A stretch of DNA of 64,000 nt, taken from positions 7,254,001 through 7,318,000 of the forward strand of contig CM120642.1 in assembly GCA_051362555.1 (NCBI GenBank), written 5' to 3'. Shown here one piece after another: positions 4,968 through 64,000 of this stretch. This stretch comes from Lingula anatina. Lineage: Eukaryota; Animalia; Brachiopoda. The notes beneath the pieces are model-generated. The model was not told the DNA's origin, ran no database searches, and worked only from the letters and a program-made list of their open reading frames with translations. Positions within the stretch are counted from its first letter, which is position 1. Every line of letters starts with the position of its first letter. The position numbers and the translations under genes are program-made.

Positions 4968-5384
4968 TGGCGATATAAAATTTTTATAGAAACACTAACC
5001 TAAGAAAAACTAGAGGATCAGAGAGGCGATACCGCCTCTGGATATTGTACCACCAGCTGGAGTAAGCGCATTCGTATGGACCCCCCCCCCCCCCAAAAAA
5101 AAAAAAAAAAAAAAAAAAAAATGGACACCACCACCAGTCTTGTGCTTGACAAGCTCTATAAAATGCAATAAACAAGAGTTCTCAAAATATGAAAAAAAAA
5201 AAAAAAAAAAACATAACAGTTAAAATGGTCCAATCAAGGAGATGTCCTAATTAACCTGTATTTTCCTAACACTGATCACTCCTGTGATTTTCTAGACAAA
5301 AGGCCTATTGGTTTTCCTTGAAATGCATTATCAGTAATGCATATACCGGAATGCTGACAAAAGAGAAAACCTAGGGACAACACT

Positions 5385-6671: not shown

Positions 6672-6752
6672 TGCGGAGCTGCAGGAGCCGGCGGAGCCGC
6701 AGGAGCCGGCAGAGCCGCAGGAGCCGGCAGAGCCGGCGGAGCCGGCGGAGCT
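6672..6752 (+). repeat. GC-rich 9/18-bp minisatellite inside the element
   Basis: (GCAGGAGCC GGCGGAGCC)n; a shorter inverted counterpart lies at about 28773-28830. Confidence 0.85.

Positions 6753-12443: not shown

Positions 12444-12446
<3 letters not shown>

Positions 12447-12498
<52 letters not shown>
12447..12498. repeat. (CT)n microsatellite
   Basis: Directly visible. Confidence 0.95.

Positions 12499-12501
<3 letters not shown>

Positions 12502-14766: not shown

Positions 14767-14768
<2 letters not shown>

Positions 14769-14813
<45 letters not shown>
14769..14813. repeat. (GT)n microsatellite
   Basis: Directly visible. Confidence 0.95.
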
Positions 14814-14815
<2 letters not shown>

Positions 14816-31900: not shown

Positions 31901-32417
31901 TGCTGTGGATGAACCAACAGCAATGGAGATTGCTAGATTAGGGTAAGTATGATCATGTGTTATATAGAGCATTAAGTTTGGTTTCAGTATGTAATAGATG
32001 CACCACAAGTGGGCAAGGTTAATGTGATGTTCACAAGTGTTAAGTATAAATGTATAGCACATCAGTCTTACTAACAATTGGTTTGTATTTTTTTAAAATA
32101 TGACTTACACCATAATGTTGGATGTCAAGAATAAAAGAGCCATCCATGAAGTAACTCATACTTTTTGTGATAAGTGTAGCAATCTTCTGATAAATTTATA
32201 CTTTGTCAGTAAAGAAGAATATTCACTGTTGTTTATGATGTATTTATTGGACCGTGTGTGTTTTTTCAGTGGTCTAGACATTCTACAAACTATCCAACAG
32301 TCAGGCTCAAGAAAGAACTGCTTTACTGATGTGGCTTTGGACAGGCTTCTAGACAGCAACCTATCAGCAAAATATGCACTGACTGGACTGCTGGGTAATT
32401 ATAGCACTCACACGTGT

Positions 32418-32472
<55 letters not shown>

Positions 32473-32604
32473 GACACATGCCAACTCCATAGGCAGAGGG
32501 GAGAAGGGTTGTATGATTTCAAGCAAACTACCCTTTTGAATGTGAAAAGGTTCATTCTAAATAAAAAAGAATTATTAAGTTTTATGCTGTTGTCTGTAGT
32601 CCTG

Positions 32605-32649
<45 letters not shown>

Positions 32650-36957: not shown

Positions 36958-37564
36958 GTCAATTTACAGCAGGAGAAACTACTGGAGAACCCATACAACA
37001 TCATAATGTTATAAAACTTGCAAATTTACATCAATTTCTGTAACAGAAGAAAGAGGACTTATGAAATATCAGCTTGAAATCGGGGATGGGGAGCAGGGAT
37101 TGACATTTTCCAATATAGATGGATATAGATGGCTCAAAATAATATCACTTTTTTTTTCATTGGCTTTGTTGAACACAGTGGTATTTACAGTCTGAGTCAT
37201 GCCATAAAATTTTTGCATAAATTTCAGAAACCAAGTGCTTTGTGATGCATAGTGTTTCTGTCCATCTGTGTCTCTGTGATCCGCAGATAAAAAACTCCCT
37301 ACCTTTATGATGATTTTTTTCAGTGAAGTATTTGTAATGAATATATATTGTATATATGTACATATGTCAGTAAAAACTTGACAGGCATGCGGACAGAAAT
37401 CGTCTTGACTATTTCTATTGTATTTTTTTTTTTTTATTATTATAGCAATTTTATTTATTTAGATTTATTTTTTGAGCAGAATGTCATTCACTGATTACCA
37501 AGGAAGGTCTATCTATTAAATTGAAATTTATTGTTCATATAAATATCATTGTACATAATTGTGA

Positions 37565-37570: not shown

Positions 37571-39044
37571 AGATTATAAATACCTTACGCTCTGATTGTT
37601 ATATAGTGAGGTACAGGGATACCTCTGTGCACCGGCAACAATGCTCCTCGCACCTCTATGTCAATTCAAGTTTCATCGATGGCGTAGCTGGAGATCAAAT
37701 GGAAACCTTTTACCTTCTCACGGAGAGGGCCAGTTTGGATATACACGTATATATCTCCAGTTACGATCGATAGCCTGGGTGCTGCATTTCTTTCCCGAGC
37801 CACGACAGGCCACGAACATGGTCTTCTGCTCATGAACGTTGACGTTTGTCACGTCCACTAGACCTTGTTTGACAACCTGGAACGGAGCCTTCCTACATAG
37901 ATGACTTTCTTTTACTTTCAGTCATTGAGAAAGTGTTTGCTTCAACTATGACGGTAAAAAGACGCAATGGTATCAAAGGCCGTTCACACCGGGGCGGTTT
38001 TAGTTTAAGCAAGCCCCTACGAAAAGGGATTCTTTAAAAAAGTGCAAGTGTTCAAAGACTGGTGCGCTTTCCATTCTAGCAATTGGGAGGATACAGAATT
38101 TGAGAAAAAAACATATTTGGCGTATAACTCCACCCACAAGATACCATCTTTTTCTGTTGAATGCGATTTACGAGTGATGCGACGTGATTCTACTGTATAC
38201 AGGCAAAGTTACTGAATCATTTCAATTTCGGTCGCTTTTATTGATAAACCTGCCTGTCATGTTCCTAGCTATATGATTTCAAATGATTTTATTTCCATTT
38301 TGTGTTACACTGAGGTTACGTTTGACTTCGCCTGTGGCGTTATAGAGCACGTTGAGATCCAAAGTGGTTTACACCTTGACGATTTTAGTTTTGAGTAGTC
38401 TTTGCCATTTGAAATGCAGACCGTGGAATTACCCCGGGGACTGTGTGACCATACGAACAGTCTTCATAAGCAAAGGACATGAGAAAAAAATGTATGAATG
38501 GGTAAAGCAATAGCGGCAACGCTACTTTTGAAAAAAAAAAATTGAGAACTTTTCTTGCAGATTATCCCAACGAGAAAATAGCACTTTTCCATGAAATGGC
38601 AGTATTACATGCGTGGCGCCGTATCGGGTCAGCAATTGACTCGATTCAAGTTTGACATGTGACGTACCTGGAAAAAGATAGAGTTCAATGAGCTTACCCT
38701 CGTCAACACCATTTTGAGGTCTTTTAAGTGAAGAGAAAGGAAGTGTTATTGACGATTCAGTCTTGATGAGAATGACCAGCAAAAAGTCTATGTCAAGTCG
38801 ATCACTTATTGTAAACTATGCCGTTTTTTATGCAAAAGGTTCATATCAAATCACCGTATTTATCTTTAAGTAATAAATCTACTAAAAAAGATGTAAGATC
38901 TTCATAGATGCACCACTGTGACAACAACTTTTTTATTAATGGTGCAAAAGGTAATTTGCGAGGACCCACGAGAGGCTGCATTCGCTCCTGTGGCTTCCCA
39001 CTCCCAGCGCCAGTTCGATGACGTTGTTGTGGTAGACTGACGTG

Positions 39045-39130
39045 CGTCTTCTGGGATTCGAACCCGTGACTCTACGTTTTTGCATTTGTTTTTTGCAGCC
39101 GTGCACGCTACCGACTGCGCCGTGACAGAC
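39045..39130 (-). pseudogene. tRNA-like Pol III cassette A (representative copy; one per monomer)
   Basis: Minus strand GTCTGTCACGGCGCAGTCGGTAGCGTGCACGGCTGCAAAAAACAAATGCAAAAACGTAGAGTCACGGGTTCGAATCCCAGAAGACG. It has an intact D arm (GCGC/GCGT), an A-box-like GGCGCAGTCGG and a perfect B box GGTTCGAATCC. The acceptor, anticodon and T stems are mismatched. Confidence 0.65.
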
Positions 39131-39210
39131 CCGCCCACCCTCAGTACGTACGAGTTTCCTTTTATAGTAATCGAACTCAATTTGTGCAAATTATTTCTGG
39201 AATAAAAATA

Positions 39211-39294
39211 ATTCGTCGCATCTTCGGACTCGAACCCGCGTACGTGGGTCTGTCAGTTTTCCAGTCGGCAAAGTTACCACGGAGCCAGACAAAC
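39211..39294 (-). pseudogene. tRNA-like Pol III cassette B (representative copy; one per monomer)
   Basis: On the minus strand: A-box-like TGGCTCCGTGG (39277-39287), perfect B box GGTTCGAGTCC (39226-39236), terminal pairing GTTTGTC/GACGAAT, and a T5 run immediately 3' (39204-39208). The cloverleaf is otherwise degenerate. Confidence 0.55.
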
Positions 39295-42200
39295 TTGGTT
39301 AGTGAACGGGAGATCAAATGGAAACCTTTTACCTTCTCACGGAGAGGACCAGTTTGGATATACACGTATATATATCTCCAGTTACCATCGATAGCCAGGG
39401 TGCTGCGTTTCTTTCCCGAGCCACGCCAGGCCACGAACATGGTCTTCTCATGAACGTTGACGTTTGTCACGTCCACTAGACCTTGTTTGACAACCTGGAA
39501 CGGAGCCTTCCTACATAGATGACTTTCTTTTACTTTCAGTCATTGAGAAAGTGTCTGCTTCAACTATGACGGTAAAAAGACGCAATGGTATCAAAGGCCG
39601 TTCACACCGGGGCGGTTTTAGTTTAAGCAAGCCCCTACGAAAAGGGATTCTTTAAAAAAGTGCAAGTGTTCAAAGACTGGTGCGCTTTCCATTCTAGCAA
39701 TTGGGAGGATACAGAATTTGAGAAAAAAACATATTTGGCGTATAACTCCACCCACAAGATACCATCTTTTTCTGTTGAATGCGATTTACGAGTGATGCGA
39801 CGTGATTCTACTGTATACAGGCAAAGTTACTGAATCATTTCAATTTCGATCGCTTTTATTGATAAACCTGCCTGTCATGTTCCTAGCTATATGATTTCAA
39901 ATGATTTTATTTCCATTTTGTGTTACACTGAGGTTACGTTTGACTTCGCCTGTGGCGTTATAGAGCACGTTGAGATCCAAAGTGGTTTACACCTTGACGA
40001 TTTTAGTTTTGAGTAGTCTTTGCCATTTGAAATGCAGACCGTGGAATTACCCCGGGGACTGTGTGACCATACGAACAGTCTTCATAAGCAAAGGACATGA
40101 GAAAAAAATGTATGAATGGGTAAAGCAATAGCGGCAACGCTACTTTTGAAAAAAAAAAAATTGAGAACTTTTCTTGCAGATTATCCCAACGAGAAAATAG
40201 CACTTTTCCATGAAATGGCAGTATTACATGCGTGGCGCCGTATCGGGTCAGCAATTGACTCGATTCAAGTTTGACATGTGACGTACCTGGAAAAAGATAG
40301 AGTTCAATGAGCTTACCCTCGTCAACACCATTTTGAGGTCTTTTAAGTGAAGAGAAAGGAAGTGTTATTGACGATTCAGTCTTGATGAGAATGACCAGCA
40401 AAAAGTCTATGTCAAGTCGATCACTTATTGTAAACTATGCCGTTTTTTATGCAAAAGGTTCATATCAAATCACCGTATTTATCTTTAAGTAATAAATCTA
40501 CTAAAAAAGATGTAAGATCTTCATAGATGCACCACTGTGACAACAACTTTTTTATTAATGGTGCAAAAGGTAATTTGCGAGGACCCACGAGAGGCTGCAT
40601 TCGCTCCTGTGGCTTCCCACTCCCAGCGCCAGTTCGATGACGTTGTTGTGGTAGACTGACGTGCGTCTTCTGGGATTCGAACCCGTGACTCTACGTTTTT
40701 GCATTTGTTTTTTGCAGCCGTGCACGCTACCGACTGCGCCGTGACAGACCCGCCCACCCTCCGTACGTACGAGTTTCCTTTTATAGTAATCGAACTCAAT
40801 TTGTGCAAATTATTTCTGGAATAAAAATAATTCGTCGCATCTTCGGACTCGAACCAGCGTACGTGGGTCTGTCAGTTTTCCAGTCGGCAAAGTTACCACG
40901 GAGCCAGACAAACTTGGTTAGTGAACGGGAGATCAAATGGAAACCTTTTACCTTCTCACGGAGAGGACCAGTTTGGATATACACGTATATATATCTCCAG
41001 TTACCATCGATAGCCAGGGTGCTGCGTTTCTTTCCCGAGCCACGCCAGGCCACGAACATGGTCTTCTCATGAACGTTGACGTTTGTCACGTCCATTAGAC
41101 CTTGTTTGACAACCTGGAACGGAGCCTTCCTACATAGATGACTTTCTTTTACTTTCAGTCATTGAGAAAGTGTTTGCTTCAACTATGACCGTAAAAAGAC
41201 GCAATGGTATCAAAGGCCGTTCACACCAGGGCGGTTTTAGTTTAAGCAAGCCCCTACGAAAAGGGAATCTATAAAAAAAGTTCAAATGTTCAAAGACTGG
41301 TGCGCTTTCCATTCTAGCAATTGGGAGGATACAGAATTCGAGAAAAAAACATATTTGGCGTATAACTCCACCCACAAGATACCATCTTTTTCTGTTGAAT
41401 GCGATTTACGAGTGATGTGACGTCATTCTACTGTATACAGGGAAAGTTACTGAATCATTTCAATTTCGGTCGCTTTTATTGATAAACCTGCCTGTCATGT
41501 TCCTAGCTATATGATTTCAAGTGATTTTATTTCCATTTTGTGTTACACTGAGGTTACGTTTGACTTCGCCTGTGGCGTTATAGAGCACGTTGAGATCCAA
41601 AGTGGTTTACACCTTGACGATTTTAGTTTTGCGTAGTCTTTGCCATTTGAAATGCAGACTGTGGAATTGCCCCGGGGACAGTGTGACCATACGAATAGTC
41701 TTGATAGGCAAAGGACATGAGAAAAAAATGTATGAATGGGTAAAGCAATAGCGGCAACGCTACTTTTGAAAAAAAATTGAGAACTTTTCTTGCAGATTAT
41801 CCCAACAAGAAAATAGCACTTTTCCATGAAATGGCAGTATTACATGCGTGGCGCCGTATCGGGTCAGCAATTGACTCGATTCAAGTTTGACATGTGACGT
41901 ACCTGGAAAAAGATAGAGTTCAATGAGCTTACCCTCGTCAACACCATTTTGAGGTCTTTTAAGTGAAGAGAAAGGAAGTGTTATTGACGATTCAGTCTTG
42001 ATGAGAATGACCAGCAAAAAGTCTATGTCAAGTCGATCACTTATTGTAAACTATGCCGTTTTTATGCAAAAGGTTCATATCAAATCACCGTATTTATCTT
42101 TAAGTAATAAATCTACTGAAAAAGATGTAAGATCTTCATAGATGCACCACTGTGACAACAACTTTTTTTATTAATGGTGCAAAAGGTAATTTGCGAGGAC

Positions 42201-45200
42201 CCACGAGAGGCTGCATTCGTTCCTGTGGCTTCCCGCTCCCAGCGCCAGTTCGATGACGTTGTTGTTGTGAACTGACGTGCGTCTTCTGGGATTCGAACCC
42301 GTGACTCTACGTTTTTGCATTTGTGTTTTGCTGCCGTGCACGCTTCCGACTGCGCCGTGACAGACCCGCCCACCCTCCGTACTCACGAGTTTCCTTTTAT
42401 AGTAATCGAACTCAATTTGTGCAAATTATTTCTGGAATAAAAATATTTCGTCGCATCCTCGGACTCGAACCCGCGTACGTGGGTCTGTCAGTTTTCCAGT
42501 CGGCAAAGTTACCACGGAGCCAGACAAACTTGGTTAGTGGATAGGAGATCAAATGGAAACCTTTTACCTTCTCACGGCGAGGGCCAGTTTGGATATACAC
42601 GTATATATATATATATCTTCAGTTACCATCGATAGCCAGGGTGCTGCGTTTCTTTCCCGAGCCACGCCAGGCCACGAACATGGTCTTCTCATGAACGTTG
42701 ACGTTTGTCACGTCCACTAGACCTTGTTTGACAACCTGGAACGGAGCCTTCCTACATAGATGACTTTCTTTTACTTTCAGTCATTGAGAAAGTGTCTGCT
42801 TCAACTATGACGGTAAAAAGACGCAATGGTATCAAAGGCCGTTCACACCTGGGCGGTTTTAGTTTAAGCAAGCCCCTACGAAAAGGGAATCTATAAAAAA
42901 AGTTCAAATGTTCAAAGACTGGTGCGCTTTCCATTCTAGCAATTGGGAGGATACAGAATTCGAGAAAAAAAACATATTTGGCGTATAACTCCACCCACAA
43001 GATACCATCTTTTTCTGTTGAATGCGATTTACGAGTGATGTGACGTCATAATACTGTATACAGGGAAAGTTAATTACTGAATCATTTCAATTTCGGTCGC
43101 TTTTATTGATAAACCTGCCTGTCATGTTCCTAGCTATATGATTTCAAGTGATTTTATTTCCATTTTGTGTTACACTGAGGTTACGTTTGACTTCGCCTGT
43201 GGCGTTATAGAGCACGTTGAGATCCAAAGTGGTTTACACCTTGACGATTTTAGTTTTGCGTAGTCTTTGCCATTTGAAATGCAGACTGTGGAATTGCCCC
43301 GGGGACAGTGTGACCATACGAATAGTCTTGATAGGCAAAGGACATGAGAAAAAAATGTATGAATGGGTAAAGCAATAGCGGCAACGCTACTTTTGAAAAA
43401 AAATTGAGAACTTTACTTGCAGATTATCCCAACGAGAAAATAGCACTTTTCCATGAAATGGCAGTATTACATGCGTGGCGCCGTATCGGGTCAGCAATTG
43501 ACTCGATTCAAGTTTGACATGTGACGTACCTGGAAAAAGATAGAGTTCAATGAGCTTACCCTCGTCAACACCATTTTGAGGTCTTTTAAGTGAAGAGAAA
43601 GGAAGTGTTATTGACGATTCAGTCTTGATGAGAATGACCAGCAAAAAGTCTATGTCAAGTCGATCACTTATTGTAAACTATGCCGTTTTTTATGCAAAAG
43701 GTTCATATCAAATCACCGTATTTATCTTTAAGTAATAAATCTACTAAAAAAGATGTAAGATCTTCATAGATGCACCACTGTGACAACAACTTTTTTATTA
43801 ATGGTGCAAAAGGTAATTTGCGAGGACCCACGAGAGGCTGCATTCGCTCCTGTGGCTTCCCGCTCCCAGCGCCAGTTAGATGACGTTGTTGTGGTAGACT
43901 GACGTGCGTCTTCTGGGATTCGAACCCGTGACTCTACGTTTTTGCATTTGTTTTTTGCAGCCGTGCACGCTACCGACTGCGCCGTGACAGACCCGCCAAC
44001 CCTCCGTACCTACGAGTTTCCTTTTATAGTAATCGAACTCAATTTGTGCAAATTATTTCTGGAATAAAAATATTTCGTCGCATCCTCGGACTCGAACCCG
44101 CGTACGTGGGTCTGTCAGTTTTCCAGTCGGCAAAGTTACCACGGAGCCAGACAAACTTGGTTAGTGGATGGGAGATCAAATGGAAACCTTTTACCTTCTC
44201 ACGGAGAGGGCCAGTTTGGATATACACGTATTTATACATATATATATATCTCCAGTTACCATCGATAGCCAGGGTGCTGCGTTTCTTTCCCGAGCCACGC
44301 CAGGCCACGAACACGGTCTTCTCATGAACGTTGACGTTTGTCACGTCCACTAGACCTTGTTTGACAACCTGGAACGGAGCCTTCCTACATAGATGACTTT
44401 CTTTTACTTTCAGTCATTGAGAAAGTGTTTGCTTCAACTATGACGGTAAAAAGACGCAATGGTATCAAAGGCCGTTCACACCGGGGCGGTTTTAGTTTAA
44501 GCAAGCCCCTACGAAAAGGGATTCTTTAAAAAAAAGTTCAAATGTTCAAAGACTGGTGCGCTTTCCATTCTAGCAATTGGGAGGATACAGAATTTGAGAA
44601 AAAAAACATATTTGGCGTATAACTCCACCCACAAGATACCATCTTTTTCTGTTGAATGCGATTTACGAGTGATGTGACGTCATTCTACTGTATACAGGGA
44701 AAGTTACTGAATCATTTCAATTTCGGTCGCTTTTATTGATAAACCTGCCTGTCATGTTCCTAGCTATATGATTTCAAATGATTTTATTTCCATTTTGTGT
44801 TACACTGAGGTTACGTTTGACTTCGCCTGTGGCGTTATAGAGCACGTTGAGATCCAAAGTGGTTTACACCTTGACGATTTTAGTTTTGAGTAGTCTTTGC
44901 CATTTGAAATGCAGACCGTGGAATTACCCCGGGGACTGTGTGACCATACGAACAGTCTTCATAAGCAAAGGACATGAGAAAAAAATGTATGAATGGGTAA
45001 AGCAATAGCGGCAACGCTACTTTTGAAAAAAAAAATTGAGAACTTTTCTTGCAGATTATCCCAACGAGAAAATAGCACTTTTCCATGAAATGGCAGTATT
45101 ACATGCGTGGCGCCGTATCGGGTCAGCAATTGACTCGATTCAAGTTTGACATGTGACGTACCTGGAAAAAGATAGAGTTCAATGAGCTTACCCTCGTCAA

Positions 45201-48200
45201 CACCATTTTGAGGTCTTTTAAGTGAAGAGAAAGGAAGTGTTATTGACGATGCATTTTTGATGAGAATGACCAGCAAAAAGTCTATGTCAAGTCGGTCACT
45301 TATGGTGAACTATGCCGTTTTTTATGCAAAAGGTTCATATCAAATCACCGTATTTATCTTTAAGTAATAAATCTACTGAAAAAGATGTAAGATCTTCATA
45401 GATGCACCACTGTGACAACAACTTTTTTATTAATGGTGCAAAAGGTAATTTGCGAGGACCCACGAGAGGCTGCATTCGCTCCTGTGGCTTCCCACTCCCA
45501 GCGCCAGTTCGATGACGTTGTTGTGGTAGACTGACGTGCGTCTTCTGGGATTCGAACCCGTGACTCTACGTTTTTGCATTTGTTTTTTGCTGCCGTGCAC
45601 GCTACCGACCGCGCCGTGACAGACCCGCCCACCCTCCGTACCTACGAGTTTCCTTTTATAGTAATCGAACTCAATTTGTGCAAATTATTTCTGGAATAAA
45701 AATAATTCGTCGCATCTTCGGACTCGAACCAGCGTACGTGGGTCTGTCAGTTTTCCAGTCGGCAAAGTTACCACGGAGCCAGACAAACTTGGTTAGTGAA
45801 CGGGAGATCAAATGGAAACCTTTTACCTTCTCACGGAGAGGACCAGTTTGGATATACACGTATATATATCTCCAGTTACCATCGATAGCCAGGGTGCTGC
45901 GTTTCTTTCCCGAGCCACGCCAGGCCACGAACATGGTCTTCTCATGAACGTTGACGTTTGTCACGTCCATTAGACCTTGTTTGACAACCTGGAACGGAGC
46001 CTTCCTACATAGATGACTTTCTTTTACTTTCAGTCATTGAGAAAGTGTTTGCTTCAACTATGACCGTAAAAAGACGCAATGGTATCAAAGGCCGTTCACA
46101 CCAGGGCGGTTTTAGTTTAAGCAAGCCCCTACGAAAAGGGATTCTTTAAAAAAGTGCAAATGTTCAAAGACTGGTGCGCTTTCCATTCTAGCAATTGGGA
46201 GGATACAGAATTTGAGAAAAAAACATATTTGGCGTATAACTCCACCCACAAGATACCATCTTTTTCTGTTGAATGCGATTTACGAGTGATGCGACGTGAT
46301 TCTACTGTATACAGGGAAAGTTACTGAATCATTTCAATTTCGGTCGCTTTTATTGATAAACCTGCCTGTCATGTTCCTAGCTATATGATTTCAAATGATT
46401 TTATTTCCATTTTGTGTTACACTGAGGTTACGTTTGACTTCGCCTGTGGCGTTATAGAGCACGTTGAGATCCAAAGTGGTTTACACCTTGACGATTTTAG
46501 TTTTGAGTAGTCTTTGCCATTTGAAATGCAGACCGTGGAATTACCCCGGGGACTGTGTGACCATACGAACAGTCTTCATAAGCAAAGGACATGAGAAAAA
46601 AATGTATGAATGGGTAAAGCAATAGCGGCAACGCTACTTTTGAAAAAAAAAATTGAGAACTTTTCTTGCAGATTATCCCAACGAGAAAATAGCACTTTTC
46701 CATGAAATGGCAGTATTACATGCGTGGCGCCGTATCGGGTCAGCAATTGACTCGATTCAAGTTTGACATGTGACGTACCTGGAAAAAGATAGAGTTCAAT
46801 GAGCTTACCCTCGTCAACACCATTTTGAGGTCTTTTAAGTGAAGAGAAAGGAAGTGTTATTGACGATGCATTTTTGATGAGAATGACCAGCAAAAAGTCT
46901 ATGTCAAGTCGGTCACTTATGGTGAACTATGCCGTTTTTTATGCAAAAGGTTCATATCAAATCACCGTATTTATCTTTAAGTAATAAATCTACTGAAAAA
47001 GATGTAAGATCTTCATAGATGCACCACTGTGACAACAACTTTTTTATTAATGGTGCAAAAGGTAATTTGCGAGGACCCACGAGAGGCCGCATTCGTTCCT
47101 GTGGCTTCCCGCTCCCAGCGCCAGTTCGATGACGTTGTTGTGGTGAACTGACGTGCGTCTTCTGGGATTCGAACCCGTGACTCTACGTTTTTGCATTTGT
47201 GTTTTGCTGCCGTGCACGCTTCCGACTGCGCCGTGACAGACCCGCCCACCCTCCGTACTCACGAGTTTCCTTTTATAGTAATCGAACTCAATTTGTGCAA
47301 ATTATTTCTGGAATAAAAATATTTCGTCGCATCCTCGGACTCGAACCCGCGTACGTGGGTCTGTCAGTTTTCCAGTCGGCAAAGTTACCACGGAGCCAGA
47401 CAAACTTGGTTAGTGGATGTGAGATCAAATGGAAACCTTTTACCTTCTCACGGAGAGGGCCAGTTTGGATATACACGTATATATTTATATCTCCAGTTAC
47501 CATCGATAGCCAGGGTGCTGCGTTTCTTTCCCGAGCCACGCCAGGCCACGAACACGGTCTTCTCATGAACGTTGACGTTTGTCGCGTCCACTAGACCTTG
47601 TTTGACAACCTGGAACGGAGCCTTCCTACATAGATGACTTTCTTTTACTTTCAGTCATTGAGAAAGTGTTTGCTTCAACTATGACGGTAAAAAGACGCAA
47701 TGGTATCAAAGGCCGTTCACACCGGGGCGGTTTTAGTTTAAGCAAGCCCCTACGAAAAGGGATTCTTTAAAAAAAGTTCAAATGTTCAAAGACTGGTGCG
47801 CTTTCCATTCTAGCAATTGGGAGGATACAGGGAAAGTTACTGAATCATTTCAATTTCGGTCGCTTTTATTGATAAACCTGCCTGTCATGTTCCTAGCTAT
47901 ATGATTTCAAATGATTTTATTTCCATTTTGTGTTACACTGAGGTTACGTTTGACTTCGCCTGTGGCGTTATTGAGCACGTTGAGATCCAAAGTGGTTTAC
48001 ACCTTGACGATTTTAGTTTTGAGTAGTCTTTGCCATTTGAAATGCAGACCGTGGAATTACCCCGGGGACAGTGTGACCATACGAACAGTCTTCATAAGCA
48101 AAGGACATGAGAAAAAAATGTATGAATGGGTAAAGCAATAGCGGCAACGCTACTTTTGAAAAAAAAAATTGAGAACTTTTCTTGCAGATTATCCCAACGA

Positions 48201-51200
48201 GAAAATAGCACTTTTCCATGAAATGGCAGTATTACATGCGTGGCGCCGTATCGGGTCAGCAATTGACTCGATTCAAGTTTGACATGTGACGTACCTGGAA
48301 AAAGATAGAGTTCAATGAGCTTACCCTCGTCAACACCATTTTGAGGTCTTTTAAGTGAAGAGAAAGGAAGTGTTATTGACGATGCATTTTTGATGAGAAT
48401 GACCAGCAAAAAGTCTATGTCAAGTCGGTCACTTATGGTGAACTATGCCGTTTTTTATGCAAAAGGTTCATATCAAATCACCGTATTTATCTTTAAGTAA
48501 TAAATCTACTAAAAAAGATGTAAGATCTTCATAGATGCACCACTGTGACAACAACTTTTTTATTAATGGTGCAAAAGGTAATTTGCGAGGACCCACGAGA
48601 GGCTGCATTCGCTCCTGTGGCTTCCCGCTCCCAGCGCCAGTTCGATGACGTTGTTGTGGTGGACTGACGTGCGTCTTCTGGGATTCGAACCCGTGACTCT
48701 ACGTTTTTGCATTTGTTTTTTTGCAGCCGTGCACGCTACCGACTGCGCCGTGACAGACCCGCCCACCCTCCGTACCTACGAGTTTCCTTTTATAGTAATC
48801 GAACTAAATTTGTGCAAATTATTTCTGGAATAAAAATATTTCGTCGCATCCTCGTACTCGAACCCGCGTACGTGGGTCTGTCAGTTTTCCAGTCGGCAAA
48901 GTTACCACGGAGCCAGACAAACTTGGTTAGTGGATGGGAGATCAAATGGAAACCTTTTACCTTCTCACGGAGAGGGCCAGTTTGGATATACACGTATATA
49001 TTTATATCTCCAGTTACCATCGATAGCCAGGGTGCTGCGTTTCTTTCCCGAGCCACGCCAGGCCACGAACACGGTCTTCTCATGAACGTTGACGTTTGTC
49101 GCGTCCACTAGACCTTGTTTGACAACCTGGAACGGAGCCTTCCTACATAGATGACTTTCTTTTACTTTCAGTCATTGAGAAAGTGTTTGCTTCAACTATG
49201 ACGGTAAAAAGACGCAATGGTATCAAAGGCCGTTCACACCGGGGCGGTTTTAGTTTAAGCAAGCCCCTACGAAAAGGGATTCTTTAAAAAAAGTTCAAAT
49301 GTTCAAAGACTGGTGCGCTTTCCATTCTAGCAATTGGGAGGATACAGGGAAAGTTACTGAATCATTTCAATTTCGGTCGCTTTTATTGATAAACCTGCCT
49401 GTCATGTTCCTAGCTATATGATTTCAAATGATTTTATTTCCATTTTGTGTTACACTGAGGTTACGTTTGACTTCGCCTGTGGCGTTATTGAGCACGTTGA
49501 GATCCAAAGTGGTTTACACCTTGACGATTTTAGTTTTGAGTAGTCTTTGCCATTTGAAATGCAGACTGTGGAATTGCCCCGGGGGCAGTGTGACCATACG
49601 AATAGTCTTGTTGGCAAAGGACATGAGAAAAAAATGTATGAATGGGTAAAGCAATAGCGGCAACGCTACTTTTGAAAAAAAAAAATTGAGAACTTTTCTT
49701 GCAGATTATCCCAACGAGAAAATAGCACTTTTCCATGAAATGGCAGTATTACATGCGTGGCGCCGTATCGGGTCAGCAATTGACTCGATTCAAGTTTGAC
49801 ATGTGACGTACCTGGAAAAAGATAGAGTTCAATGAGCTTACCCTCGTCAACACCATTTTGAGGTCTTTTAAGTGAAGAGAAAGGAAGTGTTATTGACGAT
49901 GCATTTTTGATGAGAATGACCAGCAAAAAGTCTATGTCAAGTCGGTCACTTATGGTGAACTATGCCGTTTTTTATGCAAAAGGTTCATATCAAATCACCG
50001 TATTTATCTTTAAGTAATAAATCTACTAAAAAAGATGTAAGATCTTCATAGATGCACCACTGTGACAACAACTTTTTTATTAATGGTGCAAAAGGTAATT
50101 TGCGAGGACCCACGAGAGGCTGCATTCGCTCCTGTGGCTTCCCGCTCCCAGCGCCAGTTAGATGACGTTGTTGTGGTGAACTGACGTGCGTCTTCTGGGA
50201 TTCGAACCCGTGACTCTACGTTTTTGCATTTGTTTTTTGCAGCCGTGCACGCTACCGACTGCGCCGTGACAGACCCGCCCACCATCCGTACTCACGAGTT
50301 TCCTTTTATAGTAATCGAACTCAATTTGTGCAAATTATTTCTGGAATAAAAATATTTCGTCGCATCCTCGGACTCGAACCCGCGTACGTGGGTCTGTCAG
50401 TTTTCCAGTCGGCAAAGTTACCACGGAGCCAGACAAACTTGGTTAGTGGATAGGAGATCAAATGGAAACCTTTTACCTTCTCACGGAGAGGGCCAGTTTG
50501 GATATACACGTATATATCTCCAGTTACCATCGATAGCCAGGGTGCTGCGTTTCTTTCCCGAGCCACGCCAGGCCACGAACACGGTCTTCTCATGAACGTT
50601 GACGTTTGTCACGTCCACTAGACCTTGTTTGACAACCTGGAACGGAGCCTTCCTACATAGATGACTTTCTTTTACTTTCAGTCATTGAGAAAGTGTTTCC
50701 TTCAACTATGACGGTAAAAAGACGCAATGGTATCAAAGGCCGTTCACACCGTGGCGGTTTTAGTTTAAGCAAGCCCCTACGAAAAGGGATTCTTTAAAAA
50801 AGTTCAAATGTTCAAAGACTGGTGCGCTTTCCATTCTAGCAATTGGGAGGATACAGAATTTGAGAAAAAAACATATTTGGCGTATAACTCCACCCACAAG
50901 ATACCATCTTTTTCTGTTGAATCCGGTTTACTAGTGATGTGACGTCATTCTACTGTATACAGGGAAAGTTACTGAATCATATCAATTTCGGTCGCTTTTA
51001 TTGATAAACCTGCCTGTCATGTTCCTAGCTATATGATTTCAAATGATTTTATTTCCATTTTGTGTTACACTGAGGTTACGTTTGACTTCGCCTGTGGCGT
51101 TATAGAGCACGTTGAGATCCAAAGTGGTTTACACCTTGACGATTTTAGTTTTGAGTAGTCTTTGCCATTTGAAATGCAGACCGTGGAATTACCCAGGGGA

Positions 51201-54200
51201 CAGTGTGACCATACGAACAGTCTTCATAAGCAAAGGACATGAGAAAAAAATGTATGAATGGGTAAAGCAATACCGGCAACGCTACTTTTGAAAAAAAAAA
51301 TTGAGAACTTTTCTTGCAGATTATCCCAACGAGAAAATAGCACTTTTCCATGAAATGGCAGTATTACATGCGTGGCGCCGTATCGGGTCAGCAATTGACT
51401 CGATTCAAGTTTGACATGTGACGTACCTGGAAAAAGATAGAGTTCAATGAGCTTACCCTCGTCAACACCATTTTGAGGTCTTTTAAGTGAAGAGAAAGGA
51501 AGTGTTATTGACGATGCATTTTTGATGAGAATGACCAGCAAAAAGTCTATGTCAAGTCGGTCACTTATGGTGAACTATGCCGTTTTTTATGCAAAAGGTT
51601 CATATCAAATCACCGTATTTATCTTTAAGTAATAAATCTACTAAAAAAGATGTAAGATCTTCATAGATGCACCACTGTGACAACAACTTTTTTATTAATG
51701 GTGCAAAAGGTAATTTGCGAGGACCCACGAGAGGCTGCATTCGCTCCTGTGGCTTCCCGCTCCCAGCGCCAGTTCGATGACGTTGTTGTGGTGGACTGAC
51801 GTGCGTCTTCTGGGATTCGAACCCGTGACTCTACGTTTTTGCATTTGTTTTTTTGCAGCCGTGCACGCTACCGACTGCGCCGTGACAGACCCGCCCACCC
51901 TCCGTACCTACGAGTTTCCTTTTATAGTAATCGAACTAAATTTGTGCAAATTATTTCTGGAATAAAAATATTTCGTCGCATCCTCGTACTCGAACCCGCG
52001 TACGTGGGTCTGTCAGTTTTCCAGTCGGCAAAGTTACCACGGAGCCAGACAAACTTGGTTAGTGGATGGGAGATCAAATGGAAACCTTTTACCTTCTCAC
52101 GGAGAGGGCCAGTTTGGATATACACGTATATATTTATATCTCCAGTTACCATCGATAGCCAGGGTGCTGCGTTTCTTTCCCGAGCCACGCCAGGCCACGA
52201 ACACGGTCTTCTCATGAACGTTGACGTTTGTCGCGTCCACTAGACCTTGTTTGACAACCTGGAACGGAGCCTTCCTACATAGATGACTTTCTTTTACTTT
52301 CAGTCATTGAGAAAGTGTTTGCTTCAACTATGACGGTAAAAAGACGCAATGGTATCAAAGGCCGTTCACACCGGGGCGGTTTTAGTTTAAGCAAGCCCCT
52401 ACGAAAAGGGATTCTTTAAAAAAAGTTCAAATGTTCAAAGACTGGTGCGCTTTCCATTCTAGCAATTGGGAGGATACAGGGAAAGTTACTGAATCATTTC
52501 AATTTCGGTCGCTTTTATTGATAAACCTGCCTGTCATGTTCCTAGCTATATGATTTCAAATGATTTTATTTCCATTTTGTGTTACACTGAGGTTACGTTT
52601 GACTTCGCCTGTGGCGTTATTGAGCACGTTGAGATCCAAAGTGGTTTACACCTTGACGATTTTAGTTTTGAGTAGTCTTTGCCATTTGAAATGCAGACTG
52701 TGGAATTGCCCCGGGGGCAGTGTGACCATACGAATAGTCTTGTTGGCAAAGGACATGAGAAAAAAATGTATGAATGGGTAAAGCAATAGCGGCAACGCTA
52801 CTTTTGAAAAAAAAAAATTGAGAACTTTTCTTGCAGATTATCCCAACGAGAAAATAGCACTTTTCCATGAAATGGCAGTATTACATGCGTGGCGCCGTAT
52901 CGGGTCAGCAATTGACTCGATTCAAGTTTGACATGTGACGTACCTGGAAAAAGATAGAGTTCAATGAGCTTACCCTCGTCAACACCATTTTGAGGTCTTT
53001 TAAGTGAAGAGAAAGGAAGTGTTATTGACGATGCATTTTTGATGAGAATGACCAGCAAAAAGTCTATGTCAAGTCGGTCACTTATGGTGAACTATGCCGT
53101 TTTTTATGCAAAAGGTTCATATCAAATCACCGTATTTATCTTTAAGTAATAAATCTACTAAAAAAGATGTAAGATCTTCATAGATGCACCACTGTGACAA
53201 CAACTTTTTTATTAATGGTGCAAAAGGTAATTTGCGAGGACCCACGAGAGGCTGCATTCGCTCCTGTGGCTTCCCGCTCCCAGCGCCAGTTAGATGACGT
53301 TGTTGTGGTGAACTGACGTGCGTCTTCTGGGATTCGAACCCGTGACTCTACGTTTTTGCATTTGTTTTTTGCAGCCGTGCACGCTACCGACTGCGCCGTG
53401 ACAGACCCGCCCACCATCCGTACTCACGAGTTTCCTTTTATAGTAATCGAACTCAATTTGTGCAAATTATTTCTGGAATAAAAATATTTCGTCGCATCCT
53501 CGGACTCGAACCCGCGTACGTGGGTCTGTCAGTTTTCCAGTCGGCAAAGTTACCACGGAGCCAGACAAACTTGGTTAGTGGATAGGAGATCAAATGGAAA
53601 CCTTTTACCTTCTCACGGAGAGGGCCAGTTTGGATATACACGTATATATCTCCAGTTACCATCGATAGCCAGGGTGCTGCGTTTCTTTCCCGAGCCACGC
53701 CAGGCCACGAACACGGTCTTCTCATGAACGTTGACGTTTGTCACGTCCACTAGACCTTGTTTGACAACCTGGAACGGAGCCTTCCTACATAGATGACTTT
53801 CTTTTACTTTCAGTCATTGAGAAAGTGTTTCCTTCAACTATGACGGTAAAAAGACGCAATGGTATCAAAGGCCGTTCACACCGTGGCGGTTTTAGTTTAA
53901 GCAAGCCCCTACGAAAAGGGATTCTTTAAAAAAGTTCAAATGTTCAAAGACTGGTGCGCTTTCCATTCTAGCAATTGGGAGGATACAGAATTTGAGAAAA
54001 AAACATATTTGGCGTATAACTCCACCCACAAGATACCATCTTTTTCTGTTGAATCCGGTTTACTAGTGATGTGACGTCATTCTACTGTATACAGGGAAAG
54101 TTACTGAATCATATCAATTTCGGTCGCTTTTATTGATAAACCTGCCTGTCATGTTCCTAGCTATATGATTTCAAATGATTTTATTTCCATTTTGTGTTAC

Positions 54201-60200: not shown

Positions 60201-63200
60201 AACATGGTCTTCTCATGAACGTTGACGTTTGTCACGTCCATTAGACCTTGTTTGACAACCTGGAACGGAGCCTTCCTACATAGATGACTTTCTTTTACTT
60301 TCAGTCATTGAGAAAGTGTTTGCTTCAACTATGACCGTAAAAAGACGCAATGGTATCAAAGGCCGTTCACACCAGGGCGGTTTTAGTTTAAGCAAGCCCC
60401 TACGAAAAGGGATTCTTTAAAAAAGTGCAAATGTTCAAAGACTGGTGCGCTTTCCATTCTAGCAATTGGGAGGATACAGAATTTGAGAAAAAAACATATT
60501 TGGCGTATAACTCCACCCACAAGATACCATCTTTTTCTGTTGAATGCGATTTACGAGTGATGCGACGTGATTCTACTGTATACAGGGAAAGTTACTGAAT
60601 CATTTCAATTTCGGTCGCTTTTATTGATAAACCTGCCTGTCATGTTCCTAGCTATATGATTTCAAATGATTTTATTTCCATTTTGTGTTACACTGAGGTT
60701 ACGTTTGACTTCGCCTGTGGCGTTATAGAGCACGTTGAGATCCAAAGTGGTTTACACCTTGACGATTTTAGTTTTGAGTAGTCTTTGCCATTTGAAATGC
60801 AGACCGTGGAATTACCCCGGGGACTGTGTGACCATACGAACAGTCTTCATAAGCAAAGGACATGAGAAAAAAATGTATGAATGGGTAAAGCAATAGCGGC
60901 AACGCTACTTTTGAAAAAAAAAATTGAGAACTTTTCTTGCAGATTATCCCAACGAGAAAATAGCACTTTTCCATGAAATGGCAGTATTACATGCGTGGCG
61001 CCGTATCGGGTCAGCAATTGACTCGATTCAAGTTTGACATGTGACGTACCTGGAAAAAGATAGAGTTCAATGAGCTTACCCTCGTCAACACCATTTTGAG
61101 GTCTTTTAAGTGAAGAGAAAGGAAGTGTTATTGACGATGCATTTTTGATGAGAATGACCAGCAAAAAGTCTATGTCAAGTCGGTCACTTATGGTGAACTA
61201 TGCCGTTTTTTATGCAAAAGGTTCATATCAAATCACCGTATTTATCTTTAAGTAATAAATCTACTGAAAAAGATGTAAGATCTTCATAGATGCACCACTG
61301 TGACAACAACTTTTTTATTAATGGTGCAAAAGGTAATTTGCGAGGACCCACGAGAGGCCGCATTCGTTCCTGTGGCTTCCCGCTCCCAGCGCCAGTTCGA
61401 TGACGTTGTTGTGGTGAACTGACGTGCGTCTTCTGGGATTCGAACCCGTGACTCTACGTTTTTGCATTTGTGTTTTGCTGCCGTGCACGCTTCCGACTGC
61501 GCCGTGACAGACCCGCCCACCCTCCGTACTCACGAGTTTCCTTTTATAGTAATCGAACTCAATTTGTGCAAATTATTTCTGGAATAAAAATATTTCGTCG
61601 CATCCTCGGACTCGAACCCGCGTACGTGGGTCTGTCAGTTTTCCAGTCGGCAAAGTTACCACGGAGCCAGACAAACTTGGTTAGTGGATGTGAGATCAAA
61701 TGGAAACCTTTTACCTTCTCACGGCGAGGGCCAGTTTGGATATACAGGTAAATATATATATATATCTCCAGTTACCATCGATAGCCAGGGTGCTGCGTTT
61801 CTTTCCCGAGCCACGCCAGGCCACGAACACGGTCTTCTCATGAACGTTGACGTTTGTCACGTCCACTAGACCTTGTTTGACAACCTGGAACGGAGCCTTC
61901 CTACATAGATGACTTTCTTTTACTTTCAGTCATTGAGAAAGTGTTTCCTTCAACTATGACGGTAAAAAGACGCAATGGTATCAAAGGCCGTTCACACCGG
62001 GGCGGTTTTAGTTTAAGCAAGCCCCTACGAAAAGGGATTCTTTAAAAAAGTGCAAATGTTCAAAGACTGGTGCGCTTTCCATTCTAGCAATTGGGAGGAT
62101 ACAGAATTTGAGAAAAAAACATATTTGGCGTATAACTCCACCCACAAGATACCATCTTTTTCTGTTGAATGCGATTTACGAGTGATGCGACGTGATTCTA
62201 CTGTATACAGGGAAAGTTACTGAATCATTTCAATTTCGGTCGCTTTTATTGATAAACCTGCCTGTCATGTTCCTAGCTATATGATTTCAAATGATTTTAT
62301 TTCCATTTTGTGTTACACTGAGGTTACGTTTGACTTCGCCTGTGGCGTTATAGAGCACGTTGAGATCCAAAGTGGTTTACACCTTGACGATTTTAGTTTT
62401 GAGTAGTCTTTGCCATTTGAAATGCAGACCGTGGAATTACCCCGGGGACTGTGTGACCATACGAACAGTCTTCATAAGCAAAGGACATGAGAAAAAAATG
62501 TATGAATGGGTAAAGCAATAGCGGCAACGCTACTTTTGAAAAAAAAAATTGAGAACTTTTCTTGCAGATTATCCCAACGAGAAAATAGCACTTTTCCATG
62601 AAATGGCAGTATTACATGCGTGGCGCCGTATCGGGTCAGCAATTGACTCGATTCAAGTTTGACATGTGACGTACCTGGAAAAAGATAGAGTTCAATGAGC
62701 TTACCCTCGTCAACACCATTTTGAGGTCTTTTAAGTGAAGAGAAAGGAAGTGTTATTGACGATGCATTTTTGATGAGAATGACCAGCAAAAAGTCTATGT
62801 CAAGTCGGTCACTTATGGTGAACTATGCCGTTTTTTATGCAAAAGGTTCATATCAAATCACCGTATTTATCTTTAAGTAATAAATCTACTAAAAAAGATG
62901 TAAGATCTTCATAGATGCACCACTGTGACAACAACTTTTTTATTAATGGTGCAAAAGGTAATTTGCGAGGACCCACGAGAGGCCGCATTCGCTCCTGTGG
63001 CTTCCCGCTCCCAGCGCCAGTTAGATGACGTTGTTGTGGTAGACTGACGTGCGTCTTCTGGGATTCGAACCCGTGACTCTACGTTTTTGCATTTGTTTTT
63101 TGCAGCCGTGCACGCTACCGACTGCGCCGTGACAGACCCGCCCACCCTCCGTACCTACGAGTTTCCTTTTATAGTAATCGAACTCAATTTGTGCAAATTA

Positions 63201-64000
63201 TTTCTGGAATAAAAATATTTCGTCGCATCCTCGGACTCGAACCCGCGTACGTGGGTCTGTCAGTTTTCCAGTCGGCAAAGTTACCACGGAGCCAGACAAA
63301 CTTGGTTAGTGGATGGGAGATCAAATGGAAACCTTTTACCTTCTCACGGAGAGGGCCAGTTTGGATATACACGTATTTATACATATATATATATCTCCAG
63401 TTACCATCGATAGCCAGGGTGCTGCGTTTCTTTCCCGAGCCACGCCAGGCCACGAACACGGTCTTCTCATGAACGTTGACGTTTGTCACGTCCACTAGAC
63501 CTTGTTTGACAACCTGGAACGGAGCCTTCCTACATAGATGACTTTCTTTTACTTTCAGTCATTGAGAAAGTGTTTCCTTCAACTATGACGGTAAAAAGAC
63601 GCAATGGTATCAAAGGCCGTTCACACCGGGGCGGTTTTAGTTTAAGCAAGCCCCTACGAAAAGGGATTCTTTAAAAAAGTGCAAATGTTCAAAGACTGGT
63701 GCGCTTTCCATTCTAGCAATTGGGAGGATACAGAATTTGAGAAAAAAACATATTTGGCGTATAACTCCACCCACAAGATACCATCTTTTCTGTATACAGG
63801 GAAAGTTACTGAATCATTTCAATTTCGGTCGCTTTTATTGATAAACCTGCCTGTCATGTTCCTAGCTATATGATTTCAAATGATTTTATTTCCATTTTGT
63901 GTTACACTGAGGTTACGTTTGACTTCGCCTGTGGCGTTATAGAGCACGTTGAGATCCAAAGTGGTTTACACCTTGACGATTTTAGTTTTGAGTAGTCTTT

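Follow-up and report, generated by a model that had tools for sequence, protein, structure and literature searches.

The DNA immediately downstream of the ARMC3 gene in the genome of the brachiopod Lingula anatina raises the question of what a head-to-tail array of 1.62-kb repeats, each with two tRNA-like promoter cassettes, represents. A preliminary description had proposed a tandemly amplified Pol III non-coding RNA locus, a TFIIIC-binding chromatin boundary, or a satellite that had captured SINE heads. The window (the whole stretch of DNA analyzed, 64,000 nucleotides) contained 16 full units of 1516–1632 bp, beginning at 37691, 39310, 40929 and so on to 61692, and a partial 17th beginning at 63317, in agreement with the at least 16 near-identical monomers first reported. 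Pairwise identity between units was 97.1–100%, and units 7, 8 and 10 had a common deletion of about 101 bp. The right end of the array lies beyond the window, so that 16 full units is a lower bound and any target-site duplication is out of view. A whole unit, circularly permuted, was also recovered as a contig (record 1, 1652 nt) of public DNA run X1. The features are collected in Table 1.

Table 1. Coordinates of the array, its first unit and the features discussed (positions within the window).
Feature	Position	Strand	Remarks
Tandem array	37690..64000	.	16 full units and a partial 17th; composition step at about 38-39 kb
Left boundary	37690..37696	.	End of single-copy host DNA; from depth (X7, X19) and junction tally
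Unit 1	37693..39311	-	1619 bp, fixed GATC end to next junction; sense is the strand of the tRNA-derived heads
Fixed terminal module	37693..37756	-	Common to more abundant relatives; 3' end if the element was RNA-copied
Internal module	38707..38755	.	Common to more abundant relatives; depth peak, loose ends on both sides
Internal module	38943..38984	.	Common to more abundant relatives; holds T4 run; depth peak
Cassette 2	39040..39130	-	Degenerate tRNA-derived head; A box 39112-39122, B box 39054-39064
Most abundant family module	39092..39170	-	TATA-like TATAAAAGG and A-box half of cassette 2
T5 run, predicted Pol III stop	39204..39208	-	Directly behind cassette 1
Cassette 1	39214..39294	-	More degenerate paralogue of cassette 2; A-box-like 39277-39287, B box 39226-39236
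24-nt stretch, cassette-1 A box to GATC junction	39288..39311	-	Constant length, sequence variable across the family
Block of about four units	40857..47453	+	Near-exact duplicate 14.27 kb further on; exact runs 2923, 467 and 3214 bp
Two-unit block	48142..51201	+	Exact duplicate 3132 bp further on; exact run 3060 bp

The two DNA runs covering the host flank (X7 and X19) both showed single-copy depth to about 37690 followed by a jump; the same jump was seen in run X2 in coarser bins, and the flank had no coverage in run X1. A contig of run X7 spans the host flank into the array. The bases GGA precede GATC at the host boundary and at 14 of the 16 internal junctions, and the hexamer GGAGAT is common to the same positions (a direct-repeat tally, for the left boundary only). 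No LTR, PBS, PPT, TIR, sub-terminal inverted repeat or CTRR end was seen in the unit or boundary sequence, and no hammerhead core was found on either strand of a unit dimer, strictly or with one mismatch, Rfam likewise giving no match. The unit ends at the fixed GATC without a 3' simple-repeat tail, a TA run lying about 50 nt inside. An inverted repeat between host flank and unit was dropped as a candidate terminal structure (reached by 18–21% of shuffles). The extra variability of the 15 bases before the junction within the array (4/15 columns) was likewise given no weight, since five other clusters were equally variable.

The two minus-strand cassettes, first given as co-oriented and some 80 bp apart, have tRNA-like bodies separated by about 84 bp and A-to-B box spacings of 51 and 58 nt; shuffled units carried two same-strand B boxes 9 times in 20000. 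The B box of cassette 1 (GGTTCGAGTCC) was intact in 14/16 units, being altered in units 7 and 9, and that of cassette 2 (GGTTCGAATCC) in 16/16, much as the statement that the first is altered in a few copies had it. The A box of cassette 1 is without the conserved A in all 16 units; in cassette 2 this base is lost in two. A TATA-like motif (39166-39158) lies 44 nt upstream of the cassette 2 A box, and the same seven letters, supplied by the neighboring unit, lie 46 nt upstream of cassette 1. The downstream T runs already noted were located as T5 behind cassette 1 and T4 at 38946-38949 (minus strand), about 180 nt past the start of cassette 2, where it would end a cassette-2 transcript.

Alignment of cassette 1 with cassette 2 scored 71.5 (best of 2000 shuffles, 64); judged by this, the two are duplicates of one head. 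Cassette 2, which may resemble eukaryotic tRNA-Asn, was 68–79% identical over 67–74 aligned positions to four tRNA-Met genes of prokaryote type from metagenome loci (0/500 shuffles each), and cassette 1 was 57–60% identical to the same genes. SINEBase describes a tRNA-derived SINE by at least 60% identity to tRNA over at least 60 nt (excerpts of PMC3531059); cassette 2 falls within this rule and cassette 1 is borderline. The cassettes can thus be called tRNA-derived and promoter-like, as first supposed. Neither is a tRNA: ARAGORN (bacterial code setting) gave 0 matches, Rfam found no tRNA even on 120-nt stretches at E 10, the stems are broken, and the anticodon loop of cassette 2 carries a 14-nt insertion. 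Nor did Rfam identify a 5S, snRNA, SL or snoRNA at gathering score (the highest score was 22.6 bits, the cut-off being 50), short stretches of the unit giving chance-level matches only, so that the earlier failure to recognize 5S, U1–U6 or a functional tRNA was borne out.

A working or recent Pol III small-RNA locus, or a TFIIIC boundary beside ARMC3 kept for host benefit, would account for consensus-like, mostly intact B boxes at such spacings, for TATA-like motifs upstream of both cassettes and for T runs at which discrete RNAs would end; binding of A/B-box sites of this kind by TFIIIC is quite plausible. The A boxes, however, are degenerate, and the cassettes and boxes were not conserved above the unit body when the array units were compared: variable columns made up 3.7% and 4.4% of the cassettes and 4.4% of the body. 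Cassette variability therefore gives no sign of selection, in keeping with the caution that B-box retention alone proves none. The unit also belongs to a heterogeneous repeat family and its middle is nearly lost in run X19 (see below). In 4/4 RNA runs cassette 1 had zero depth, and the bins over the A box of cassette 2 had a minus-strand depth below 1, which is weak evidence as these libraries select long RNA and 6–25% of each was read; single-copy ARMC3 exons or 3' UTR reached a depth of about 2–9 in the same runs. No array-like minus-strand pile-up was seen in the four long-RNA libraries, a type of library in which small RNAs are lost. Reads piled up on a cassette only in X13 (13 reads) and X14 (17 reads); these come from a different locus, because they are plus-strand with other letters and other flanks. 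A search across sequencing runs listed no RNA run containing the repeat, which counts neither for nor against transcription. Run X10 showed a plus-strand depth of about 4 over 37822-38097. A functional RNA array or chromatin boundary is not supported, this reading is very unlikely, and nothing here argues for an importance in host function.

A decayed coding or viral fragment amplified in tandem, with paired Pol III genes like those of adenovirus VA, was weighed as well. In the plus strand, a frame of 180 codons is interrupted by just five stops and looks protein-like by eye. Against this, stop counts in the frames equaled those of shuffles, 0/18 frames had a meaningful Pfam match (one at E 0.07), the best stop-interrupted frame had no homologue among 143 candidates or 1.84 billion representatives, and one cassette motif had 0 matches in viral contigs. 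A hidden protein or viral gene was ruled out on these grounds, in line with the absence of a credible ORF from the preliminary description; as an origin of the array such a fragment is largely refuted and extremely improbable. Outside the host, a second unit motif had 0 metagenome matches, and a third matched 14 metagenome loci (5/14 inside tRNA-Met genes) with no homology beyond about 25 nt.

Contigs of public DNA runs, whose summed depth is not a copy number, showed that the unit is a member of a larger repeat family with one sharp GATC end, internally deleted relatives and modules in common. The fixed terminal module reached a depth of 8248 against 1613 in the next bin in X7, and 4617 against 345 in X19; loose ends lie behind 37756 and tandem joints resume at 37690-37709, mostly at 37693. 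Loose ends at 38943 and 38984 were seen in X1, X2, X19 and RNA run X16. The most abundant module had a summed contig depth of about 440–740 times single-copy (X7, X19), and the B box of cassette 2 is bypassed by joints running from 38979/38984 to 39087-39091; the B-box half is missing from many relatives, the most abundant among them. Internal parts were skipped by 15 of the 23 joints listed in one contig survey and 15/55 in another. Joints from 39169-39197 (X1, records 2–3) suggest a diverged full-length cassette 1 and not a truncation; those from 38357 and 38840, and one opposite-strand joint, could reflect the 5' truncations, partial tandems or inversions that are frequent in non-autonomous Penelope-like elements. 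Head-to-tail joints also occur in relatives of the unit.

The distance from the cassette-1 A box to GATC was 24 nt in 16/16 window junctions. Among the public-contig junctions listed with known letters, GATC was present in 13/13, at 23–24 nt from the A box in 12 and at 30 nt in one. The intervening letters differ among family junctions. In run X19, where the flank differs at 21/246 positions, the unit middle (37884-38193) had a depth of 43–146 against 40 for single-copy DNA and the common modules stayed abundant; this is lineage turnover of the unit middle, with near loss there.

These results bear on the possibility of an ordinary satellite, i.e., a chance duplication of 1.6 kb of repeat-rich DNA that contained dispersed SINE heads or tRNA pseudogenes and had no unity as an element. 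The A-box half of cassette 2 greatly exceeds the unit in abundance, module abundances differ, and SINE-derived satellites are documented, among them those of squamates (excerpts of PMC10702118). But the host boundary of the array coincides with the GATC terminus of the family, and three DNA runs contain diverged subfamilies with the same head-to-GATC geometry. Cassette 1, moreover, has the depth of the unit body in the public DNA contigs and is not dispersed beyond it; this and its fixed distance to the terminus make the heads an integral element end, not later passengers. An ordinary satellite is quite unlikely, and the suggestion that a satellite had captured SINE heads came closer than an RNA locus but was not exact either.

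Twin of Culex is a dimeric tRNA-derived SINE with two heads in tandem, and dimeric SINEs have in common with the unit a tRNA-derived 5' head, here likewise doubled. Unlike SINEs and SINE satellites, the repeat exceeds 1 kb, is tandem, has no simple-repeat tail, contains internal terminators and comprises a whole element rather than a SINE sub-segment; a 1.62-kb tandem unit lies outside the SINEBase limits of less than 1 kb, interspersed and non-tandem. Helenus TRIMs with tRNA-like LTRs, which include Helenus-1 to -3_LAn of Lingula, come from the same genus and carry tRNA-like A and B boxes without a working tRNA, and excerpts of PMC10886601 report tandem arrays of them for one fish family. The LTR consensus of Helenus-1 to -3_LAn (elements of 314–323 bp, TGTAG to CTACA) is unlike the unit by eye, four unit motifs are absent from the part of the supplement available (PMC10886601), and of the marks of Helenus, which comprise TG/CA-bounded LTRs, PBS, PPT and a 4-bp TSD, the LTRs, PBS and PPT were not found at the unit boundary and junctions.

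A stronger rival is a non-autonomous DNA element that moved via a circle, by a rolling-circle (Helitron-like) or tyrosine-recombinase (Crypton-like, at GGAGAT) route, the tRNA heads being cargo captured near one end. In the Helitron-like form the element, in minus-strand sense, would start with TC, end with TTGA and be inserted between A and T, every junction then reading GATC, an invariant sequence that can be read as TC at the start and TGA at the end; as GATC is a palindrome, a 5' TC and insertion between A and T would be compatible with either strand. A Crypton-like element would carry a direct repeat of 4–6 bp at both termini, for which GGAGAT at the left boundary is a candidate. A single-copy contig of run X19 (record 6) tracks the flank to 37695 and then departs, as an empty site between A and T or at GGAGAT would; it suggests an empty site. 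The three bases before GATC match the host in 14/16 array junctions and in 0/13 listed junctions of other members, internal deletions with kept ends fit, and T runs are no obstacle. Helitron and Helentron arrays and Cryptons resemble the repeat in their tandem whole elements, deletion derivatives with common ends, and a boundary compatible with insertion between A and T or a short direct repeat (excerpts of PMC12001565, PMC4067079 and PMC3212892), and Helitron-derived arrays have monomers of up to 1996 nt (excerpts of PMC12001565). They differ in that the unit has no CTAG/CTRR end (it ends TTGA or NNGA), no strong 3' hairpin (z 0.2 to -0.7), no subTIR or TT flanks, and no linked Rep or recombinase gene. 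In particular, the 12–15 bp subTIRs, 3' palindrome and TT flanks of Helentron HINE/DINE-1 were not found in the unit: the best terminal inverted match, tried as a Helentron-type repeat, was 6 nt, a chance level reached by 2699/5000 shuffles, and the flank ends GGA, not with the TT of Helentron derivatives (excerpts of PMC4067079). Behind the supposed TC start the bases show free variation, which would not be expected of an end that a transposase binds; animal Cryptons are reported without terminal repeats in excerpts of PMC3212892; and the constant, start-site-like distance of the A box from the end is left unexplained. A circle-borne DNA element is somewhat improbable.

The reading that we favor, with an even chance of being right, is that a mobile element, non-autonomous, with a dimeric tRNA head and probably derived from a retroposon, was inserted behind ARMC3 and grew by unequal recombination into the present macrosatellite. 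It draws on the sharp element end, family structure, junction geometry, tRNA origin and head duplication, and further on the unconstrained cassettes, lineage turnover, local recombination and lack of LTR-, TIR- or CTRR-type ends. A borrowed reverse transcriptase of a type that makes head-to-tail copies would have copied a Pol III-headed retroposon ancestor, starting at its 3' end; this would explain why a sense tRNA head lies at start-site distance from one terminus and a fixed common module forms the other. Such a reverse transcriptase is a candidate for the mobilizing enzyme, a Penelope-like one being the best guess. MRC1 of Chlamydomonas, a non-autonomous Penelope-like element, is similarly non-coding, multicopy and head-to-tail, with a fixed common end and no LTR or TIR, and Naiad and most Chlamys are without a hammerhead (excerpts of PMC8557442). 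The unit has head-to-tail multimers with one fixed end, and its terminal module is common to more abundant relatives, where a non-autonomous Penelope-like element would have its 3' end in common with an autonomous element encoding RT and GIY-YIG; unlike Penelope-like elements it shows no pseudo-LTR, 30–40 bp tail, clear 5' truncation or microsatellite target, and for them no tRNA-derived head is mentioned in excerpts of PMC8557442.

Duplication and decay of the head, and diversification of the family by internal deletion and module sharing, are visible in the sequences; under this retroposon account they would have come next. One member may then have landed at a site ending GGAGAT, as in most array junctions, and unequal exchange with conversion would have expanded and homogenized the array. 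In the four-gamete test 533/1378 informative-site pairs failed (11 non-duplicate units), and the exact block duplications and mosaic units show what appears to be local growth by unequal exchange. The sense strand of the unit has 13 runs of at least four T, five of them of at least six, the first directly behind cassette 1; today's unit therefore cannot be one Pol III transcript, and retroposition would have required either a shorter ancestor at an earlier time or read-through by Pol II. The present unit would give at most short Pol III read-outs, predicted at about 100 and 185 nt, as a by-product. Against the retroposon reading, clear 5'-truncated copies are absent from the joints examined, it is non-autonomous DNA elements that typically show many internal deletions with the ends left in place, and the want of a hammerhead core, and of the cassette 2 B box in the commonest relatives, would count in the same direction.

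No published description of the element was found in the literature, Repbase, Dfam and the consensus of LinSINE1, a MetaSINE of Lingula, being outside that comparison. A bolder proposal, which we consider unlikely as it stands, is that brachiopods have an undescribed family of mobile elements that are non-coding. The 5' end of its members would be set by the distance from a tRNA-derived A box, which fixes the Pol III start, and an invariant GATC would connect it with a fixed 3' end. They would travel as circles or multimers, no ribozyme, LTR or inverted repeat being involved, and the junction of each lineage would carry a few bases that match its landing site.

The OAX unit of Xenopus is 741 bp long. 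The tRNA-related tandem repeats of amphibians, OAX/satellite I, PolIII/TAN of newts, Rana/polIII and Hy/polIII (units of about 200–360 nt in three of them against 1.62 kb here, OAX being longer than those three), are, like the present array, non-coding and head-to-tail, with a tRNA-derived Pol III-type segment in the unit and no matching dispersed SINE identified (excerpts of PMC10702118). The Lingula array differs in its doubled and terminal head, its brachiopod host and the GATC junction of its family. Ever since those amphibian cases, repeats of this kind for which no SINE matches have remained a puzzle (excerpts of PMC10702118), and the array adds a long-unit, double-headed example in a brachiopod. 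More usefully, it supplies a rule for the junction that can be measured: the A box lies at a constant distance from GATC, the letters between them vary, and the host boundary matches the junction. With this rule the origin of such arrays becomes testable in one public genome. If the proposed family is real, the 1.62-kb macrosatellite would be one such element caught in the course of becoming a satellite, and may serve as a model by which to understand those tRNA-related tandem repeats of animals that have had no explanation.

An anchor search placed 16 complete units and part of a 17th between 37691 and the end of the window, which confirmed the tandem array of the preliminary description. The units were 1516-1632 bp long and 97.1-100% identical to one another, and no copy of a unit or a cassette was present in the first 37.7 kb of the window. 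The array starts approximately 730 bp downstream of the last coding exon of ARMC3, whose 3' UTR was covered by RNA to about 37570, i.e. to about 120 bp short of the array. The exact match of one ARMC3 exon to a Lingula protein places the host among the lingulid brachiopods. Two copies of one non-autonomous element, ~82% alike and in inverted orientation, were also located. Each contains 146-bp repeats in an internal array, together with a GC-rich 9/18-bp repeat, and has a terminal palindrome with CTAA/T after it; the element looks like a Helitron/Helentron type.

Features of the window. Depth is that of contigs from the public DNA run X7; summed contig depth is a rough guide to abundance only.
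Feature	Position	Strand	X7 depth	Remark
Non-autonomous element, first copy	5006-6814			4 copies of the 146-bp repeat
ARMC3 exons	~28500-36958	+		one exon 100% identical to Lingula anatina ARMC3 (best of 23 protein matches)
Non-autonomous element, second copy	28712-31306			10 copies of the 146-bp repeat; inside an ARMC3 intron
Single-copy flank	to ~37690		87	depth 40 in DNA run X19
Unit 1	37693-39311	-	1600-9300 (body)	
GATC at joint	37693-37696			
Terminal module	37693-37756		8200	
TAAAAGG	37706-37712	-		46 nt upstream of cassette 1 A box
Shared module	38707-38755		11000-17000	
Segment flanked by 10-bp direct repeat	38830-38952			repeat on both sides of 112 bp
Shared module	38943-38984		11000-17000	
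T4 run	38949			behind cassette 2
Cassette 2	39040-39130	-	7200 (B-box half)	
TATA-like motif and cassette 2 A-box half	39092-39170		~40000	
TAAAAGG	39158-39164	-		44 nt upstream of cassette 2 A box
T5 run	39208			behind cassette 1
Cassette 1	39214-39294	-	2500-3300	not above unit body
Block of about four units	40857-47453			repeated almost exactly, 14.27 kb further on
Two-unit block	48142-51201			repeated exactly, 3132 bp further on

In a comparison of 11 non-duplicate units, the four-gamete test was failed by 533 of 1378 informative-site pairs, and a deletion of ~101 bp was common to units 7, 8 and 10. Together with the repeated blocks, the mosaic sites and the common deletion form a pattern typical of unequal exchange and conversion; the exact blocks are possibly assembly duplications. 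The ~101-bp deletion and one of 40 bp in unit 17 have short direct repeats at their edges and resemble microhomology-mediated deletions.

The unit had been described as having no credible ORF, and this was upheld: Pfam gave no notable match among 18 frames, and the minimum stop count along any path was the same as in shuffled sequences. The most protein-like frame carries five stops (read as X for searching) and had no relative among 143 candidates or 1.84 billion representatives. No hammerhead core was found in the unit. The paired, co-oriented minus-strand cassettes, the T runs behind them and the alteration of the first B box in a few copies were all recovered as first reported. The cassettes lie ~84 bp apart in each unit, with the B box changed in 2 of 16 units for cassette 1 and in none of 16 for cassette 2; two same-strand B boxes in one unit occurred in 9 of 20,000 shuffled units. 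ARAGORN detected no tRNA in the window and no Rfam family reached its gathering score there, short stretches giving chance-level matches only.

A 19-mer spanning the A box and D arm of cassette 2 was found at 14 metagenome loci, five of them within tRNA-Met genes. Over its whole length cassette 2 was 68-79% identical to four of these genes, a level never reached by 500 shuffles, and its anticodon loop holds an insertion of 14 nt relative to them; it is tRNA-derived. Cassette 1 was less similar to tRNA-Met genes (57-60% identity), and the conserved A is absent from its A box in all units. Its alignment with cassette 2 scored 71.5 (best among 2000 shuffles, 64), and it is a paralogue of the latter. 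The TAAAAGG upstream of cassette 1 belongs to the end of the neighbouring unit. The tandem arrangement could supply cassette 1 with a putative upstream promoter element; alternatively, cassette 2 could have arisen by duplication of a junction-spanning piece.

The array had been proposed as a possible tandemly amplified Pol III ncRNA locus, with the caveat that B-box retention does not prove selection. The caveat stood; the proposal gained no support. In the cassettes 3 of 81 and 4 of 91 columns were variable, versus 52 of 1174 in the unit body, so the array gives no sign of selection on the cassettes. The four RNA runs mapped, of which 6-25% each was sampled, were poly(A), oligo-dT or of unspecified type; ARMC3 exons or the 3' UTR served as strand control (depth ~2-9; run X16 was only weakly stranded). 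In these long-RNA libraries the depth over cassette 1 was zero in all four runs, and minus-strand depth was <1 over the cassette 2 A-box bins. This null is compatible with short Pol III transcripts, since RNAs of 90-185 nt are lost from libraries of this type. At 39104-39170, runs X13 and X14 gave pile-ups of 13 and 17 plus-strand reads with flanks of their own; these come from a diverged copy of the abundant module, which is part of a plus-strand transcript from another locus. Run X10 alone gave plus-strand poly(A) reads at 37822-38097 (depth ~4), not continuous with the ARMC3 3' UTR. Derivation of the array from a mobile element is very probable, and a host RNA gene array correspondingly improbable.

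The closest described systems are the tRNA-related tandem repeats of amphibians and the SINE-derived satellites treated in PMC10702118. The unit departs from the SINEBase definition of a SINE, as worded in PMC3531059, in length, tandem state and tail. PMC4824008 reports LinSINE1 as a SINE of Lingula. Identity of the unit with Helenus-1 to -3_LAn was rejected on comparison with PMC10886601. No description of this element was present in the literature searched.

Contigs of public DNA runs were placed on the unit at 85% likeness (X2) or 80% (X1, X7 and X19), and one X7 contig bridged the transition from flank to array. Many joints omit internal parts of the unit (among the 15 best supported of 23 in one placement and of 55 in the other), and joints jump past the B-box half of cassette 2. 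In X19 the unit middle falls to a depth of 43-146 while the shared modules remain high. The shared modules, skipping joints and drop of the middle in X19 show that the unit belongs to a heterogeneous family of repeats whose ends are shared, and that this particular unit is not fixed across lineages. X19 bears the same species label, lacks most of the unit and differs at 21 of 246 single-copy flank positions, a hint that it may represent a strongly diverged population or a cryptic species. Separately, the 112-bp segment within 38830-38952 is apparently missing from several relatives (loose ends 38942-38943).

All listed head-to-tail joints resume at or just past GATC. From the first base of the cassette 1 A box to GATC the distance was 24 nt in 16 of 16 window junctions; in 13 listed public-contig rows with known letters it was 24 nt in nine, 23 nt in three and 30 nt in one. 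The intervening letters differ across those 13 rows, the last three or four most. GGA precedes GATC at the host boundary and at 14 of 16 array junctions, versus none of the 13 rows. A single-copy X19 contig tracks the flank to 37695 and then diverges (one contig, seven further bases); this may be an empty site and is not proof of one. A 1652-nt contig of X1 represents a whole unit in circularly permuted form.

The reading that fits the array best is a macrosatellite derived from a mobile element and carrying a relic dimeric tRNA head. The tRNA head lies in sense orientation at a constant, start-site-like distance from one end of the unit, with the fixed shared module at the other end; units join head to tail, and LTR, TIR, subTIR and CTRR ends are absent. 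Jointly these features point to descent of the unit from a non-autonomous retroelement of a multimer-making kind. Head-to-tail multimers are made by non-autonomous Penelope-like elements, as described in PMC8557442. The serious objection is that the sense strand has 13 runs of at least 4 T, five of them of at least 6, which rules out transcription of the present unit as one Pol III RNA; given these runs, the retro step would have to be placed in an ancestor or proceed via Pol II read-through, with a hypothetical RT partner. The full retro account is given an even chance. Its main rival is movement of the unit through a DNA circle. Were this Helitron-like, GATC would be divided between a TC start and a TGA end, with insertion at A|T, but neither the canonical Helitron 3' end nor a hairpin, subTIRs or TT flanks are present (compare PMC12001565 and PMC4067079). 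Crypton-like movement could account for GGAGAT as a direct repeat, yet PMC3212892 reports animal Cryptons as having no terminal repeats. The junction rule is the sole feature worth pursuing.
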